Below are positions 24,266 through 30,649 of a stretch of 64,000 nucleotides of DNA, piece by piece. The notes beneath the pieces are model-generated. The model ran no database searches. It was not told the DNA's origin and was given only the letters and a program-made list of their open reading frames with translations. Source of the DNA: Acidobacteriota bacterium (GTDB lineage: Bacteria; Acidobacteriota; UBA890; WLXD01); assembly GCA_965205505.1 (NCBI GenBank), contig CBDBHB010000008.1:1152001-1216000 (forward strand). The letters are read 5' to 3'. The position numbers and the translations under genes were made by a program. Each line of letters begins with the position of its first letter. Positions within the stretch are counted from its first letter, which is position 1.

Positions 24266-26588
24266 TCGGTCCTGTCGTACGAGCCGCAGAGGTCGGCACG
24301 ACATCCTCGTGCACGCTCGAACGTTGGAGCTGCAGTTAGTGCGGGAGACCGGATTGCGCTACCGGTGGTGTTTGATTGCGTTGGTGTTTCCGCTGCTCTG
24401 TGCAAACGCGGCGCCGCAAGCTCTGGATCTTGACAGGCAACTCGTCGTCGCTGCGGCGACTGACGACCTGGCCGAAGTCGAGGCTCTCATCAGTCGGGGA
24501 GCGGATGTCAACGCGGATAACGGCTTCGGTGTTACCGCCCTGTATAGCGCCGCGGACTGGGGACGGCACGAGCTCGTACGGCTGCTGCTCGAGAACGGTG
24601 CCAATCCGGACTCGAATCCGACGTCACGCGGCCGATCGCCGTGGGGCAAGACGCCGCTTCAGCTTGCCGCCGGGTCCAACACCGACGTCGCGGCGCCAGA
24701 CGCCAGGGCGGAGATCGTCAGGCTGCTGGTCGAGCACGGGGGTGGCACCGAAGGCGAGGCACTCGTTGACCTCATCCGGGCGGGCTACCTCGATGCGGTG
24801 CGGACGATCGTCGAGCGAGGCGGCGCCAACCCGTCGTATCTGAACGCGGCGCTCGGCGCGGCGCAACGCAACCAGCGTATGGAGCTGGCGGCGTTCCTGA
24901 TCGCAGCGGGCGCGGAAGAGCCGACAGCGGTGGATCGCTTCAATACAGCAGAGCGATTGGAGCGACTCGAGGGCGTCTATCGGGCTCAGACCGGCGAGAC
25001 GGTAACACTCCGGCGGGGTTTCGAGGACGGCGAGCTCATCCTCGAACGGACCGGGCGTGGCGATGTGATGCTCGTACCTGCCAATCTGACAATCCTGCGA
25101 TCCCTCGACCGCACAGCGGTCGCCGAGCTGCGCGGACGGGCCCTACCGCCTTCCGAGCTGGTGGTGTCGGAAGGAGAACGTTCCGAGGAATTCGTCTGGA
25201 TTCGCCCTGTCACCGAACGGCCGAAAGCGGCGCCGGTCGGCGACCGCGTCACAGATCGGCCGCGCGTGCCCACGCCGGAGCTCGGCGCCCGGGAGTGGTC
25301 TTCGTTCCGCGGTCCTGGCGGCTCGGGCGTCGCCGATGGGACTGACCTGCCGACCGAGTGGGACGTGGAGCAGGGGGTCAACGTCGCTTGGAAGACGCCG
25401 ATTCCGGGGCTCGGTCATTCGAGCCCGATAGTCTGGGGTAACCGGGTGTTCATCACGACCGCCGTCCCGGGCGCCGGTGAGGTCGCGACCTTCCGCGACT
25501 TCTCGGAGGTCGTGGGCTCGGGGGTCTTGGCGTTCGTCAGGGAGGACGTGCCGTATTCCTGGCGGGTCGTTGCGCTCGACAAGAACAGCGGTGAGATTCT
25601 CTGGGAGCGGGCGGCACGCGAAAGAATACCGCGCACCGCGCGCCACGTCATGGCCTCGCATGCGAATCAGACGCCGGTCACGGACGGCACGCACGTCGTG
25701 GCGTGGTTCGGGTCCGAAGGAGTCTACTGCTATGACTTCGACGGCAACCTGCTGTGGTCCAAGGACCTCGGTCCGGTCCCGTCGGGCCGCTACTTCGATC
25801 CGGGTTACGAATGGAACACGGCGAGCTCGCCCATCATCCACAAGAATCTGTTGATCCTCCAGGTGGATGGGATCGACGAAGCGTATCTCTTGGCGCTCGA
25901 TGTCGCGACGGGTACGGAGGTCTGGCGTACGGAACGCGATGAGCACCCGTCCTGGCCGACGCCCTTCATCTACGAAGGCGCCACGCGCATCGAGCTGGTC
26001 ACCGCCGCGATCAAGTTCGCGCGCGGCTACGACCCCGACACGGGCCAAGAGCTCTGGAGGCTCGGCCTCCACGGCGACTTTCCGACACCCACACCGATTG
26101 CCGGCCATGGGCTGATCTTCATCACCAGTGGGTACGGCACGGTTGAGCCGATCTACGCCATCCGTCCCGGCGCGAGCGGTGATATCACGCTGGCTGACAA
26201 CGAAGCCTCCAACGATTCGGTGGCCTGGAGCACGCGGCGTGGGGGCGCCTTCATCCCGACGCCGATCGTCTATGGAGATCTGCTGTATGTGCTTCGCGGC
26301 GGCGGCATCCTCACCGCATACCAGGCGGAGACCGGAGAGCGAATCTATCAATCGCGGATCACGCGGGGTCGCAACTACTCCGCGTCGCCCGTCGCGGCTG
26401 ATGGCAAGATCTACTTCGCCAACGAGGACGGCGAAGTGATCGTCGTCAAGGACGGTCCGGAGTTCGAACGGCTGGCGGTCAATCAGATGGGCGAGCCGCT
26501 CATGGCAACCCCGGCGATTGCCCACGGGATGATGATCTTCCGCATGCAGGAGCACGTCGTCGCGATCGGCGCTGACTCAGCTGAGTAG
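24252..26588 (+). CDS. Ankyrin-repeat plus PQQ-like (BamB-type) beta-propeller protein; true start probably downstream
   Basis: GADVNADNGFGVTALYSAA and GKTPLQLAA ankyrin repeats; WSSFRGPGGSG, GHSSPIVWG, SASPVAADGKIY. Confidence 0.85.
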   Translation: MVVASRSCRTSRRGRHDILVHARTLELQLVRETGLRYRWCLIALVFPLLCANAAPQALDLDRQLVVAAATDDLAEVEALISRGADVNADNGFGVTALYSAADWGRHELVRLLLENGANPDSNPTSRGRSPWGKTPLQLAAGSNTDVAAPDARAEIVRLLVEHGGGTEGEALVDLIRAGYLDAVRTIVERGGANPSYLNAALGAAQRNQRMELAAFLIAAGAEEPTAVDRFNTAERLERLEGVYRAQTGETVTLRRGFEDGELILERTGRGDVMLVPANLTILRSLDRTAVAELRGRALPPSELVVSEGERSEEFVWIRPVTERPKAAPVGDRVTDRPRVPTPELGAREWSSFRGPGGSGVADGTDLPTEWDVEQGVNVAWKTPIPGLGHSSPIVWGNRVFITTAVPGAGEVATFRDFSEVVGSGVLAFVREDVPYSWRVVALDKNSGEILWERAARERIPRTARHVMASHANQTPVTDGTHVVAWFGSEGVYCYDFDGNLLWSKDLGPVPSGRYFDPGYEWNTASSPIIHKNLLILQVDGIDEAYLLALDVATGTEVWRTERDEHPSWPTPFIYEGATRIELVTAAIKFARGYDPDTGQELWRLGLHGDFPTPTPIAGHGLIFITSGYGTVEPIYAIRPGASGDITLADNEASNDSVAWSTRRGGAFIPTPIVYGDLLYVLRGGGILTAYQAETGERIYQSRITRGRNYSASPVAADGKIYFANEDGEVIVVKDGPEFERLAVNQMGEPLMATPAIAHGMMIFRMQEHVVAIGADSAE

Positions 26589-28997
26589 GCGTTCGCTTTT
26601 GGGGTCGCAAAGCGGCTGCTCGACGACCTGTGCGGATCGGCGCTCGCCGAGGATGCCTACCTCGAGCTCTGTGCCAGGTTCGATGTAGGCGATCGGCAAG
26701 TACGCGAAGCCGATCGACTTCTGAACGCTATGGCCATAGCCGCCCGACGCGATGTAGGCGATCGGCTTTCCGTCTGCGTAGACCGGCTCGAAGCCAAGTG
26801 CATCCGCATCATCGGCGTCGATGACGAGGCAGGTGAGCTGGCGATCGACGCCTTGCTTTTTCTGCTCGAGGAGTGCGTCGCGGCCAATGAAATCGCCCTT
26901 CTCGAAATCGACGAAACGCTCCATTCCAGCCTGGAGCGGTGTCCAGTCCGCCGACATATCCGCTCCCCAGAGCCGGTACGCCTTCTCGAGCCGCATCGAC
27001 TCGAGCGCCCGATATCCCCAATCGACGATCCCGTACTGTGCACCCTCCTTCATCAACAGATCGTAGAGGGTTCGCTGGTACTCCATGGGTGTGTGCAGCT
27101 CGTAGCCGAGCTCACCGACGAACGAGACTCGCAACGCCCTTACAGGCACCTTGTCGAAGGTCAACTGCTTGCAGCGGAAGAACCGGAACGCCTGATTGGA
27201 AATGTCCGTGGTGGTGAGCGGTTGGATGAGATCGCGTGAGCGGGGCCCCGCCACCGTCAGGGTTGTAAGGCTGCTGGTCGTGTTCACCAGGTTTACGCTG
27301 CCGTCGTCGGGCAGGTGGCGCTCGATCCACGCGTGGTCGTGGAGCTCTGTCGCAGCAGCCGAAACGATGTAGTAGTGATCCTCTGCGAGCTTGGTCACCG
27401 TTACATCGCACTCGATACCGCCTTTCGGAGTGCACATCTGCGTCAGGACGATCCGCCCGTTGTTCTTTGGAAGCCTGTTGGCGCAGAGGTAGTCGAGGAA
27501 GCTCTCGGCGCCGGGTCCTGAAACCTCGTACTTTGCAAAGCTCGACTGGTCGAGAATGCCGACGGTCGATCGAACCGCGGCGCATTCCTTGCCTACTGCG
27601 TCGTGCCAGTTTCCTCGACGAAACGAGTACTCGTCTCGCCTCGGTCCATCCGGGTCAAACCACAGCGGGCGCTCCCACCCGAATCGGGCGCCGAAGACGG
27701 CTCCCTTCGCGAGGAGTCGGTCGTACAGTGGATCCGTCTTCAAAGGTCGGCCGGCAGGGAGCTCCTCTTCGGGATAGTGAATCGCGTACTCGCGCCGATA
27801 AACCTCTAGCGCACGTTCCGAGATGTAGCGGGAGGAGGCCGCGTAGTCATCGAACCGCCGCACGTCGAGCTCCCACATGTTGTCGCTCGGCTGCCCATCG
27901 ACGATCCACTCTGCGGCGTACTTTCCAGCTCCACCACCGAAGACGATGCCAAAAATGCTGAAGCCCGCCAGGACGTGAAAGTTCGGCAGGCCCGGTACCG
28001 GACCCATGAGGCAGTGTCCGTCCGGCGTGTATCCGTCGGGCCCGTTGACGAAGGTCTGGATCGGCGCATCCGCGAACAAGGGAACCCGTTCGGCGCAGCC
28101 GGCGAGAGACTCTTCGAGACGATCGAGCGAGGGTTCGAGTAGACGGCTGTGGAAGTTCTCCGGGATTCCGTCGACCCCCCACGTCACGGTCTGGCGCTCG
28201 AAGGGACCGACGAGCAGCGCACCCGCTTCCTCTCGAACATAGAACGATGAATCGGGATCCCTCAGCACGGGCAATTCGCTCGTGAGAGCCTGCACCTCTT
28301 TGAGTGGTGTGGTGATGAGGAATTGGTGTTCGAGGGGAATAATCGGCAGCTCGAGTCCGACGAGACGACCGAGCTGTCTCGCCCACTGGCCCGCGGCGTT
28401 GACGATCACATCGGTACGGATCTCGCCCTTCGTCGTCTTCACGAGCCAGCCATCGCCATCTCGCTCGATCGCTGTTACCCCCGCGTGCTGGTGGATTTCG
28501 GCGCCCGCTGCCGTTGCTCCCCTGGCGAGCGCCTGGGTAACGCCTGCCGGATCCACATAGCCATCGGTCGGAATGTGAGCGACGGCAAGGGCATCGTCGA
28601 AGCTCGCAAGCGGGAAGAGCTCGCGAGCTTGCGCGGGAGTAATGATGTTGAACGGAATACCGAGTGTCTCAGCGATGCCCTTCCGGTTGTTGAATTCGTC
28701 GAGACGATCTTGTGTCGTGCCGATCCGAAGGCTCCCACACTGATGGAAGTCGACCGCCTGTCCGGTTTCGGCCTCGAGCCGGTTGTACAGATCGAGGCTG
28801 TACTGGAGGAGCTTCATCAAGTTCCAGCTCGAGATCATCTGCGTGCACAGACCCGCTGCGTGCCACGTCGAGCCGCTCGTCAACACGTTCTTCTCGACCA
28901 GGACGACGTCGTTCCATCCCAGCTTCGTCAGGTGATAGAGGACGCTGCAGCCCGCTACCCCTCCTCCGATGACGACGACTTGCGCTTCGCTTCGCAC
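26577..28997 (-). CDS. GcvT-family FAD-dependent dehydrogenase (dimethylglycine/sarcosine dehydrogenase-like)
   Basis: GGGVAG, TSGSTWHAAG, GPDGYTPDG, GWERPLWF, SFVGELGYE, SMRLEKAY. Confidence 0.92.
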   Translation of the reverse strand: MRSEAQVVVIGGGVAGCSVLYHLTKLGWNDVVLVEKNVLTSGSTWHAAGLCTQMISSWNLMKLLQYSLDLYNRLEAETGQAVDFHQCGSLRIGTTQDRLDEFNNRKGIAETLGIPFNIITPAQARELFPLASFDDALAVAHIPTDGYVDPAGVTQALARGATAAGAEIHQHAGVTAIERDGDGWLVKTTKGEIRTDVIVNAAGQWARQLGRLVGLELPIIPLEHQFLITTPLKEVQALTSELPVLRDPDSSFYVREEAGALLVGPFERQTVTWGVDGIPENFHSRLLEPSLDRLEESLAGCAERVPLFADAPIQTFVNGPDGYTPDGHCLMGPVPGLPNFHVLAGFSIFGIVFGGGAGKYAAEWIVDGQPSDNMWELDVRRFDDYAASSRYISERALEVYRREYAIHYPEEELPAGRPLKTDPLYDRLLAKGAVFGARFGWERPLWFDPDGPRRDEYSFRRGNWHDAVGKECAAVRSTVGILDQSSFAKYEVSGPGAESFLDYLCANRLPKNNGRIVLTQMCTPKGGIECDVTVTKLAEDHYYIVSAAATELHDHAWIERHLPDDGSVNLVNTTSSLTTLTVAGPRSRDLIQPLTTTDISNQAFRFFRCKQLTFDKVPVRALRVSFVGELGYELHTPMEYQRTLYDLLMKEGAQYGIVDWGYRALESMRLEKAYRLWGADMSADWTPLQAGMERFVDFEKGDFIGRDALLEQKKQGVDRQLTCLVIDADDADALGFEPVYADGKPIAYIASGGYGHSVQKSIGFAYLPIAYIEPGTELEVGILGERRSAQVVEQPLCDPKSERLLS

Positions 28998-29082
28998 GTT
29001 CTTCTTCCTCTCTTGGGTAGCTCGCGGTGTTGTGAGTCACCAGCCGTCCATTCGGGATCGAGCCTCGCCGCAGGCCTCTACA

Positions 29083-29877
29083 TCAGGGCTTGGTCGCCCG
29101 GAAGTTGATGCCGACGGTGCCAAACTCGCTGGCGCTAGACGCCTGCGGGGCGCCGTCGAAGACTTCGGCCTTCCAGGTGATCTCGAAGTCGGTGAAACCT
29201 GCAGCAACGACCGTCGCCTCGAGCTCTGCTTCCAGCAGAGCGCCGGCGATTCAGCCGGTCCACAGATCGATCTTTTGTTTCGCTGCTTCCGGCACTTCCC
29301 GGCTTACCAAAATGTCGCCGATCTGCAGCCGACCGCCGGGGCGCAGCACGCGGAACATCTCGCCGAGGGTCTTTTGCTTGTCGGGCGTCAGGTTGAGCAC
29401 GCCGTTGGAGATCACCACGTCGGCCCAGCCGTCGGGTACCGGGATCCCCTCCATGTAGGCCTCGCGGAACTCGACGTTGCCGATGCCTGACTCCGCAGCG
29501 GCGGCCCGCGCCCTCTCGAGCATCGCCGGGGTCATGTCGATGCCCACGACCTCGCCGTCCGGAACGACCATGCGAGCAGCGACGAGCGAGTCGATACCCC
29601 CTCCTGAGCCAATGTCGACCACTCGCTCACCAGAGGCCAACTCACCCATGGCGAACGGGTTGCCGGTGCCGGCAAACGATTCGATGGCCGCTTCCGAGAC
29701 ACCTTCGAGCCACTCGTCCTGGTAGCCGACGATCTTGGTCAGGGGGCGGCCGGTGTGGAAGTGGAATCCCTTGCCGGGGTTCTCAGCCACGACCTGATAT
29801 TCGTCCTGGATGGCTTTGCGCAGGGTGTCGGTATCGACATCGATGGCTTGTGCCACCAGCGAACGGTCTGCGGTCAT
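29083..29877 (-). CDS. ArsM-like SAM methyltransferase, probable selenoprotein (UGA at 29251-29253)
   Basis: AAGGAG RBS; FAGTGNPF, VDIGSGGGID, ISNGVLNL; DLWTG-UGA-IAGAL where ArsM-like proteins have Cys; frame stays open 55 more codons to ...INFRATKP*. Confidence 0.82.
29223..29241 (-). promoter_or_regulatory. Bacterial SECIS-like hairpin
   Basis: Minus strand: UGA + 9 nt + GCUCUGCU-GGA-AGCAGAGC; loop begins with G 18 nt after the UGA. Confidence 0.72.
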
Positions 29878-30034
29878 CGGGTTTCTCCTTTTCTCGACAC
29901 GATGAGCCGCGACTTCATTCAGCAAGCCAAAAACGGCCCTGGGCTCGACTAAACTCCCGGGGACGGCCTCCTGCCGCAGCAACGTGGACAATAGCCTAGA
30001 TCAGATGCAGCAATGACTCACGGAGAGCTTTCTC

Positions 30035-30649
30035 ATGAACTGCTCTTGCCGGTCACGCGCAACGCGGCTTGCCGCGGCATCGTGCGCCCTACTTGCACTC
30101 GCCCCGCTCACACCCGCGCCACTCGAACGGCAACCGGCGCCGACCCTGGCACTCACGTTCGAGGCAGCGACTCCGGGCGATGCCGCGGCGCGCGACGAGT
30201 ACGAGGCCATCTGGGCGGAGGAAGGCCCGCGAATTGTTGACGCGATGCGTTCCTACACGGGCCTCGAGTTCCAGGAAAACGAGGACACCGTGCACGTCAT
30301 CGTGGTGGAAGAAGCCAGCTCATCGGGCTTCGGCTCCAGACCGATGAGACTCCGCTCGAGCTACCCGTCCGACACGAAACAAGCGACGCTCATCCACGAG
30401 CTCGGCCACCGTCTCCACGGACGTTTCTTTACGCGTAACGACGAAGATCATCCGACACTCTTTCTGTATCTCTACGACCTCTGGGTGGAGCTTTATGGTG
30501 AGGAGTTCGCCGACGGGCAGGTGGCCGTCGAAAGTCGGCGGCGTGGCTACTACGACTACGAATCGGCTTGGAGTGAGGCGTTGTCGATATCGATGCAGGA
30601 GCGAGCCCGCCGACTTCAGGAGAAGCTAGCCTCCAGGAGGGGCTTCTAG
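30035..30649 (+). CDS. Exported hypothetical protein with HExxH zincin-like motif
   Basis: Signal-like N-terminus; TLIHELGHRLH. Confidence 0.7.
   Translation: MNCSCRSRATRLAAASCALLALAPLTPAPLERQPAPTLALTFEAATPGDAAARDEYEAIWAEEGPRIVDAMRSYTGLEFQENEDTVHVIVVEEASSSGFGSRPMRLRSSYPSDTKQATLIHELGHRLHGRFFTRNDEDHPTLFLYLYDLWVELYGEEFADGQVAVESRRRGYYDYESAWSEALSISMQERARRLQEKLASRRGF

Follow-up and report, generated by a model that had tools for sequence, protein, structure and literature searches.

Does the TGA codon inside an ArsM-like methyltransferase gene of an Acidobacteriota bacterium end the protein or encode selenocysteine (Sec), and what would the resulting enzyme act on? The gene lies on the minus strand (29877..29083) of a 64,000-nucleotide stretch, here called the window, which spans positions 1,152,001 to 1,216,000 of contig CBDBHB010000008.1 (assembly GCA_965205505.1). 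Read with translation table 11, it runs from the ATG to a TGA that follows ...KIDLWTG and yields a product of 208 residues. Past this TGA, the same frame continues as IAGALLEAELEATVVAAGFTDFEI...NFRATKP to a second TGA (coordinates in Table 1), adding 55 codons with the peptide IAGALLEAELEATVVAAGFTDFEITWKAEVFDGAPQASSASEFGTVGINFRATKP. A first-pass annotation, made from the sequence alone, had noticed this continuation, and translation of the minus strand bears it out. The read-through product has 264 residues, reads ...DLWTG-U-IAGALLEAELEATVVAAGF across the site, with Sec at residue 209, and contains no Cys residue at all, as that annotation had also observed. Judging from the comparison of related genes, the apparent stop almost certainly encodes Sec. 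The explanation that best accounts for the locus, and which we consider highly probable, is a single gene for a 264-residue ArsM-like S-adenosylmethionine (SAM)-dependent methyltransferase in which codon 209, UGA, is decoded as Sec.

The codon at this position was compared across the best 80 of 555 confirmed relatives from species-representative genomes. These loci are matches to the Sec-form query, and the sample is therefore biased towards Sec forms. They come from Acidobacteriota, Gemmatimonadota, Chloroflexota, Betaproteobacteria, Desulfuromonadales, SAR324, Actinomycetota, Myxococcota, Nitrospira and other taxa. TGA stands at the column in 76 of the 80 loci, TGC in three and TGT in one; at the DNA level no Trp or Gly codon occurs there among the 80 loci, and the non-TGA forms all encode Cys. 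The frame past the column remains open for a further 55-82 codons in the loci that reach a stop (79/80), and the peptide is conserved. The exceptions to this length are L087, a Cys form with a TusA-like tail (157 codons), and L061, which runs off its contig. Strong conservation past the UGA, and a column filled by TGA or by Cys (DLWTG-C-IAGA in the Cys forms), are in keeping with the hidden selenoprotein proposed in the first-pass annotation. We further compared the codon changes between the window gene and 18 colinear homologs, pairs that share ancestry and whose figures are descriptive. Codons 222-264 contain 25, 39 and 279 differences at codon positions 1, 2 and 3, respectively, with 247 changed codons synonymous and 71 non-synonymous. 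The synonymous rate in this region is 0.319 per codon per pair, and upstream of the UGA it is 0.310. On these substitution counts, the peptide past the UGA is under purifying selection.

Protein databases present the family differently from the DNA. Among the best 120 database proteins, 108 end at the TGA position and 12 are full length. The shortened entries cover 75-78% of the query and are mostly 208 residues long (a few, with a longer N-terminus, have 214-239). The full-length homologs are colinear through the site and carry Cys in 10 cases (DLWTGCIAGA) and Trp in two, the latter presumably gene calls made with another translation table. In 40 genomes of relatives, every match of at least 60% identity carries exactly one TGA (15 genomes, 14 matches full-length and one partial), and no stop-free match exceeds 46% identity. 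An apparent match with two TGA codons, in genome G288, turned out to be the same gene plus its own stop. TGA ends 14 of the 22 long open frames in the window, and the 75 TGA-form homologs finish with TGA (41), TAG (24) or TAA (9), one running off its contig. Thus, TGA is an ordinary stop here and not a reassigned codon. A second Sec at the terminal TGA, in a tail of the UXPK-star type, was ruled out: homologs use TAG or TAA at that place, and no conserved sequence follows the stop. Some Sec-form loci (L044, L049-L051, L053-L055, L063, L068, L071 and L074) carry a C-terminal tail of 15-25 residues, (D/E)EW..AL.AL.C.., with a conserved Cys that could serve as a resolving cysteine for Sec209; the window gene has no such tail. 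In the Longimicrobiales locus L054 (3154 and 4637), a Cys-form paralog with a C-terminal tail of ~150 residues lies directly upstream of the Sec-form gene, forming a tandem Cys/Sec pair.

In the standard bacterial mechanism, SelB with Sec-tRNA(Sec) is recruited by a Sec insertion sequence (SECIS) hairpin. The source genome (5.98 Mb, 96% complete) encodes this machinery. Profile searches placed selD (322.8 bits), selA (516.6 bits, two copies), selB (354.6 bits) and tRNA-Sec (68.2 bits) above their curated cut-offs, and ARAGORN also reported a tRNA-SeC with anticodon tca. The first-pass proposal, which would have been hard to maintain in a genome lacking these four components, stands on this count. 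The genome also encodes a formate dehydrogenase alpha subunit, FdhA (contig C9:1517186-1520185, 1323.5 bits), with one internal TGA. Near FdhA, a second molybdopterin-oxidoreductase-like frame (C9:1541902-1543956, L112), open over 1133 aa, holds one in-frame TGA and may be a further selenoprotein. The selD gene (contig C1:10698-11615; L001 1393..3663, minus strand) is part of a 756-aa open reading frame (ORF) with an N-terminal extension of ~400 residues, and its active-site stretch, CAGCGSK, is the Cys form, not Sec. The selA copies (C6:10376-11734, plus strand, and C6:191379-192737, minus strand) have identical scores of 516.6 bits, lie inverted ~180 kb apart and represent a genuine duplication or else an assembly repeat.

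Nine nucleotides past the UGA, the transcript can fold into GCUCUGCU-GGA-AGCAGAGC, a perfect 8-bp stem whose loop begins 17 nt from the UGA. The first-pass annotation had described this stem and loop and called it a SECIS element, and both the description and the assignment hold up. The bacterial SECIS (bSECIS) model in the Fig. 2 legend of PMC13188914 allows a loop of 3-9 nt with a G within the first two positions, an upper stem of 4-16 bp, a UGA-to-loop distance of 16-37 nt and a minimum free energy of -7.5 kcal/mol or lower. The hairpin falls within these limits, with its 3-nt GGA loop, 8-bp stem, 17-nt distance and -11.7 kcal/mol. Folded in isolation it has a z-score of -3.6, equalled by one of 200 shuffles. 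In a gap-free alignment of 77 TGA-form sequences, the stem is paired in 97.1% of cells, and compensatory changes occur in five of the eight stem pairs, 17 cells in all; pair 6 changes from G:C to C:G or U:A, and pair 3 from U:A to C:G or G:C. None of 500 shuffles attained the covariation score on any measure, sliding the 3' arm brought pairing to 30-51%, and RNAalifold, unprompted, predicts the same 8-bp stem. Counted over the window and 67 of the 76 TGA loci (68 TGA-form sequences), all eight pairs form in 56 and seven of eight in 10; the Cys-form genes (n=5) form only 3-6 of 8. The synonymous rate in codons 213-221 is 0.142, half that of the flanks.

Several considerations speak against taking the UGA as a Sec codon too readily. 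In its GC-rich 71-nt context, the fold is unexceptional (z = -1.39, 23/200 shuffles), and therefore the comparative data, not the folding energy, carry the case. Kinship can beat shuffles without any structure, and the shuffle control overstates significance because the sequences are related and most have one stem sequence; this shared stem leaves the covariation resting on about 17 cells. Moreover, Sec decoding is read here from sequence comparison.

The protein shows matches to class I methyltransferase domains in Pfam (Methyltransf_31, 1e-32). An AlphaFold2 (AF2) model calculated from 59 sequences has a mean pLDDT of 94.9, and residues 210-264 are confidently modelled within the fold, including strands 229-237 and 255-262. 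The best Foldseek matches of this model are CrArsM, CmArsM and human AS3MT (TM 0.63-0.70 on the query, about 30-33% identity). Pfam, alignment to entries in the Protein Data Bank (PDB), the AF2 model and Foldseek agree on an ArsM-type, SAM-binding class I fold. Residues were mapped by phmmer alignment to solved ArsMs and counted along the chain, with the position of Cys44 falling outside the alignment. Sec209 lies opposite the As(III)-binding Cys224 of CmArsM. Thr71 aligns with Cys72, the very residue at which the C72A entry 5eg5 departs from 4kw7, and Gly159 with Cys174. FAGTGNP replaces the GCGNP or GCGS of solved ArsMs, in line with what the first-pass annotation had noted. That annotation had also taken W-x-G-C-I-A-G-A for the ArsM context of the catalytic Cys, which does not hold: solved ArsMs have G-E-C-L-(A/G)-G-A, and the former is the subfamily's own motif. 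The aligned members have FAGTGNP, FAGVGNP, FAGVANP, LAGTGNP or close variants at the Cys72 position, with Cys in none of them; residue 71 is Thr or Val, and residue 159 is Gly throughout the subfamily. Across the 59 sequences, S157, N158, G159, W206 and the Sec/Cys column are invariant, as are D88, G92, G94 and D96 of the SAM motif. Within the FHFHTGR signature, F40, T42 and G43 are invariant and H39, H41 and R44 are at least 90% conserved.

By analogy with the standard bacterial mechanism, SelB carrying Sec-tRNA(Sec) would recognize the 8-bp/GGA hairpin and insert Sec at codon 209. If selenium or SelB were missing, translation would end at the UGA, leaving a fragment of 208 residues without the last two strands of the predicted fold. 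In the complete protein, Sec209 occupies the position at which ArsM holds its substrate, beside the SAM site. Because the two partner cysteines are missing, a single selenolate would have to hold the substrate, probably a soft electrophile bound via one covalent Se-X bond, with the methyl group supplied by SAM. Since this Cys-poor branch has lost the other arsenic-binding cysteines (72 and 174), it may act on a substrate other than arsenic, and the first-pass suggestion that the substrate may not be arsenite seems reasonable given Thr and Gly at these positions and the missed ArsM cut-off. As a rough estimate, a reactive species of sulfur or selenium (sulfide, selenide, persulfide or perselenide) is a possible though doubtful substrate, As(III), methylarsenite (MAs(III)) or another metalloid would be an unlikely one, and something else would take the remainder.

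Among the alternatives, the one that survives best is a true arsenite or methylarsenite methyltransferase, in which a stronger As-Se bond at Sec209 would offset the absence of Cys72 and Cys174, and glutathione or His39/His41 might supply further ligands. We consider this improbable, without dismissing it. The best NCBIfam matches are all ArsM-type families, but each score lies under its cut-off: 235.6 bits against 510 for NF041537, 231.5 against 263 for NF008823 (224.2 bits in the genome search), 211.5 against 460 for NF047649 and 208.3 against 575 for NF041536. The same is true of the subfamily, in which none of 16 members (the window protein and 15 others) reaches a cut-off, the 15 others scoring 214-253 bits with NF008823. 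The best PDB matches, by sequence and by fold, are ArsM and AS3MT, and Sec aligns with the As-binding Cys224; set against this, an ArsM survey used a criterion of at least three of the four conserved cysteines 44, 72, 174 and 224 (given in PMC5552862), and the window protein has Thr at 72, Gly at 174, Sec at 224 and no Cys anywhere, position 44 lying outside the alignment. A UxxG selenoprotein is catalogued as an arsenite methyltransferase in tables of PMC13188914, PMC2398784 and PMC5029168, yet no ars genes stand beside the gene in the window, and the same genome holds a separate 311-aa ArsM-like paralog with all ArsM cysteines (contig C9; L104 955..1890, minus strand). This paralog has the motifs YGCGDP, SNCVLNL and SGCISGA and Cys-rich N and C termini, and its best NCBIfam match is the arsinothricin-type ArsM NF040538 (287 bits, cut-off 500). 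Our doubt about arsenite is based on the Thr and Gly residues, the missed cut-offs, this paralog and sulfur-type neighbours at 22 of 80 loci.

The bolder proposal, which is quite unlikely in its full form, is that the clade marked by FHFHTGR and a single Sec might be a Sec-dependent chalcogen methyltransferase, and not an arsenic enzyme, widespread in soil and sediment bacteria. In such an enzyme, sulfide, selenide, persulfide, perselenide or a thiol would be trapped next to SAM by the single selenolate, forming an Se-S or Se-Se adduct, and volatiles of the methanethiol or methylselenol type would be freed by methylation. ORFs of OsmC, ArsR-rhodanese, MBL-fold or DsrE-like type, one or more per locus, lie no further than 4 kb from the gene at 22 of the 80 other loci, a raw count obtained with BLAST searches against Pfam-checked representatives. 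Some Cys-form homologs have a C-terminal tail labelled TusA-like (PF01206) in precomputed Pfam annotation. A number of results pull the other way. A Pfam scan of one Cys-form homolog (P0121) at 1e-5 gave no PF01206, only a minority of loci has the sulfur-type neighbours, and the neighbours in the window, namely a dimethylglycine dehydrogenase (DMGDH)-like gene, a PD40 protein and an unassigned ORF, have no sulfur link. Furthermore, the nearest relatives by sequence and structure are all arsenic methyltransferases, with Sec at the arsenic-binding position. As a separate observation, an upstream ArsR-HTH/rhodanese fusion, an MBL-fold hydrolase and an MFS transporter adjoin the gene in the Gemmatimonadaceae loci L053, L055, L061, L068, L071 and L074, a layout that resembles sulfide- or persulfide-response clusters.

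Two further alternatives concern the UGA itself. That it is a real stop, leaving a 208-residue truncated methyltransferase or pseudogene with an untranslated frame downstream, is very improbable: public gene calls do end there in the 108 shortened matches, but the same 'truncation' recurs at 76 of 80 loci across phyla, the downstream frame is always open and under purifying selection, its residues are modelled with confidence as part of the fold, and the Cys-form homologs run colinearly through the site. Reading of the UGA without selenium, through a reassigned code (UGA as Trp or Gly) or near-cognate suppression, to which the Trp in two database homologs might point, is scarcely credible for a codon that ends this very gene and 14 of the 22 long window frames, in a family whose genes end in TGA, TAG and TAA and whose non-TGA column codons specify Cys, never Trp or Gly, in the DNA, and in a genome with the full Sec machinery and a covarying hairpin.

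Decoded as Sec, the gene is a real selenoprotein gene of an already catalogued type, the ArsM-type UxxG. The experimentally verified selenoproteins in Table 1 of PMC13188914 include 'Arsenite methyltransferase, NF008823, UxxG, 1 Sec', with a citation of Fomenko et al. 2007 (Science), and a Sec-containing arsenite S-adenosylmethyltransferase family is also tabulated in PMC9312934. A table in PMC5029168 counts 41 ArsM-family selenoproteins in 39 organisms. The 'hidden selenoprotein' of the first-pass annotation is accordingly hidden from gene callers but not from the literature. Like the catalogued Sec-ArsM (PRK11873/NF008823), the window protein is a class I SAM methyltransferase of ArsM type with U-I-A-G, a UxxG motif, at the Cys224 column and a SECIS element directly 3'. 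It differs, together with the 15 other members, in scoring below the NF008823 cut-off and in having no equivalents of Cys72 and Cys174, although the catalogued family (representative WP_011987699.1) may already include the Cys-poor branch. We found no literature text on such a branch, which papers and supplements beyond those consulted may cover; the main texts of the BSepDB and deep-Sep papers contain neither arsenite nor methyltransferase.

With canonical CmArsM (4fr0, 4fsd, 6cx6), CrArsM (5evj) and human AS3MT (8xt7), the window protein shares the fold, the SAM motif and the position of the 224-type residue. Positions 72, 174 and 224 are Cys in the canonical enzymes but Thr, Gly and Sec in the window protein, which is also shorter (264 residues compared with about 320-390) and has the N-terminal FHFHTGR signature. 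Its methyltransferase domain also aligns over ~220 residues with NF041537 (ArsM/AhpD), NF041536 (ArsM/DUF2284) and NF047649 (methyltransferase/UXPK-star), families with the motif UxxG that are attributed to Haft & Tolstoy 2025 in Table 1 of PMC13188914. These are fusion or double/triple-Sec proteins, whereas the window protein contains a single Sec and has neither a second domain nor a UXPK tail. In the NF041537 and NF041536 profiles, the match was confined to the methyltransferase part. The name of NF047649 suggests that a second Sec lies in a UXPK tail at the C-terminus; the window gene ends with ...RATKP and a stop, and no conserved tail follows in homologs. The cut-off of this family was reached by none of the 301 genomes of the same phylum that were searched. 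A functional analogy may be drawn with MddH, MddM1 and MddM2, small cytosolic class I SAM enzymes of UbiE/UbiG type that act as H2S/methanethiol S-methyltransferases in sulfide detoxification (PMC11445057, PMC12904073). Set beside the window protein by description only, they indicate that such chemistry is possible without the ArsM cysteine triad; no word starting with 'selen' occurs in the main text of either paper.

Downstream of the selenoprotein gene, and on the same strand, window positions 26577..28997 encode an 806-aa FAD-dependent oxidoreductase of dimethylglycine/sarcosine-dehydrogenase type with a GcvT folate-binding domain. Given that this DMGDH-like gene begins after a gap of 85 nt and that no terminator-like site intervenes, the two genes may be co-transcribed. 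Neither an intrinsic terminator nor a promoter was found on the minus strand from 28900 to 30100. A divergent ORF and a PD40-repeat protein lie upstream. The former (30035..30649, plus strand) encodes 204 aa with a signal-peptide-like N-terminus and a zinc-protease-like HELGH motif, and has no Pfam match at 1e-5. A conserved operon as a clue to function was rejected: in an all-against-all BLAST of 2212 ORFs from 81 loci, no neighbour family, leaving out the methyltransferase and its shadow ORFs, occurs in more than 14 loci, and the DMGDH-like gene belongs to no neighbour cluster shared by at least three of the 81.

Table 1 Features of the Sec-containing methyltransferase gene, in window positions
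Feature	Position	Strand	Basis
Full selenoprotein gene, ArsM-like class I SAM-dependent methyltransferase, M1..P264 plus stop	29083..29877	-	Translation, Pfam, AF2, Foldseek
In-frame UGA read as Sec (U209), CmArsM Cys224 column	29251..29253	-	Translation, chain residue count, homolog column
Final stop TGA after ...NFRATKP	29083..29085	-	Translation
Shine-Dalgarno-like AAGGAG, 7 nt 5' of ATG	29885..29890	-	Inferred from sequence reading
SAM-binding glycine-rich motif VVDIGSGGGID, residues 86-96	29590..29622	-	Pfam; conservation in 59 sequences
Subfamily signature F-H-F-H-T-G-R, residues 38-44	29746..29766	-	Conservation in 59 sequences
Thr71 (FAG-T-GNP) at CmArsM Cys72 position	29665..29667	-	Alignment to 4kw7, 5eg5
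Gly159 (SN-G-VLNL) at CmArsM Cys174 position	29401..29403	-	Alignment to 4kw7
bSECIS-type hairpin, 8-bp stem and GGA loop, starting 9 nt past UGA	29223..29241	-	Fold, covariation, RNAalifold, bSECIS constraints

In public protein sets, 108 of the 120 best matches break off at the Sec codon, and a fragment without the key residue therefore stands for a methyltransferase that is common in Acidobacteriota, Gemmatimonadota, Chloroflexota and other phyla. The balance of Sec to Cys forms, 76:4 in our Sec-biased sample, is the reverse of the 8:245 tabulated for the ArsM selenoprotein family in an ocean survey (PMC2398784). The loss of the two partner cysteines that define arsenite binding suggests, from the residues aligned, a chemistry based on a single selenolate. 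If the substrate is a sulfur or selenium species and not arsenic, the microbial routes to volatile methyl chalcogenides would gain a selenoenzyme. The enzyme would then also represent a route for the detoxification of reactive sulfur or selenium that annotation has missed, gene callers having reduced it to a stub of 208 residues.

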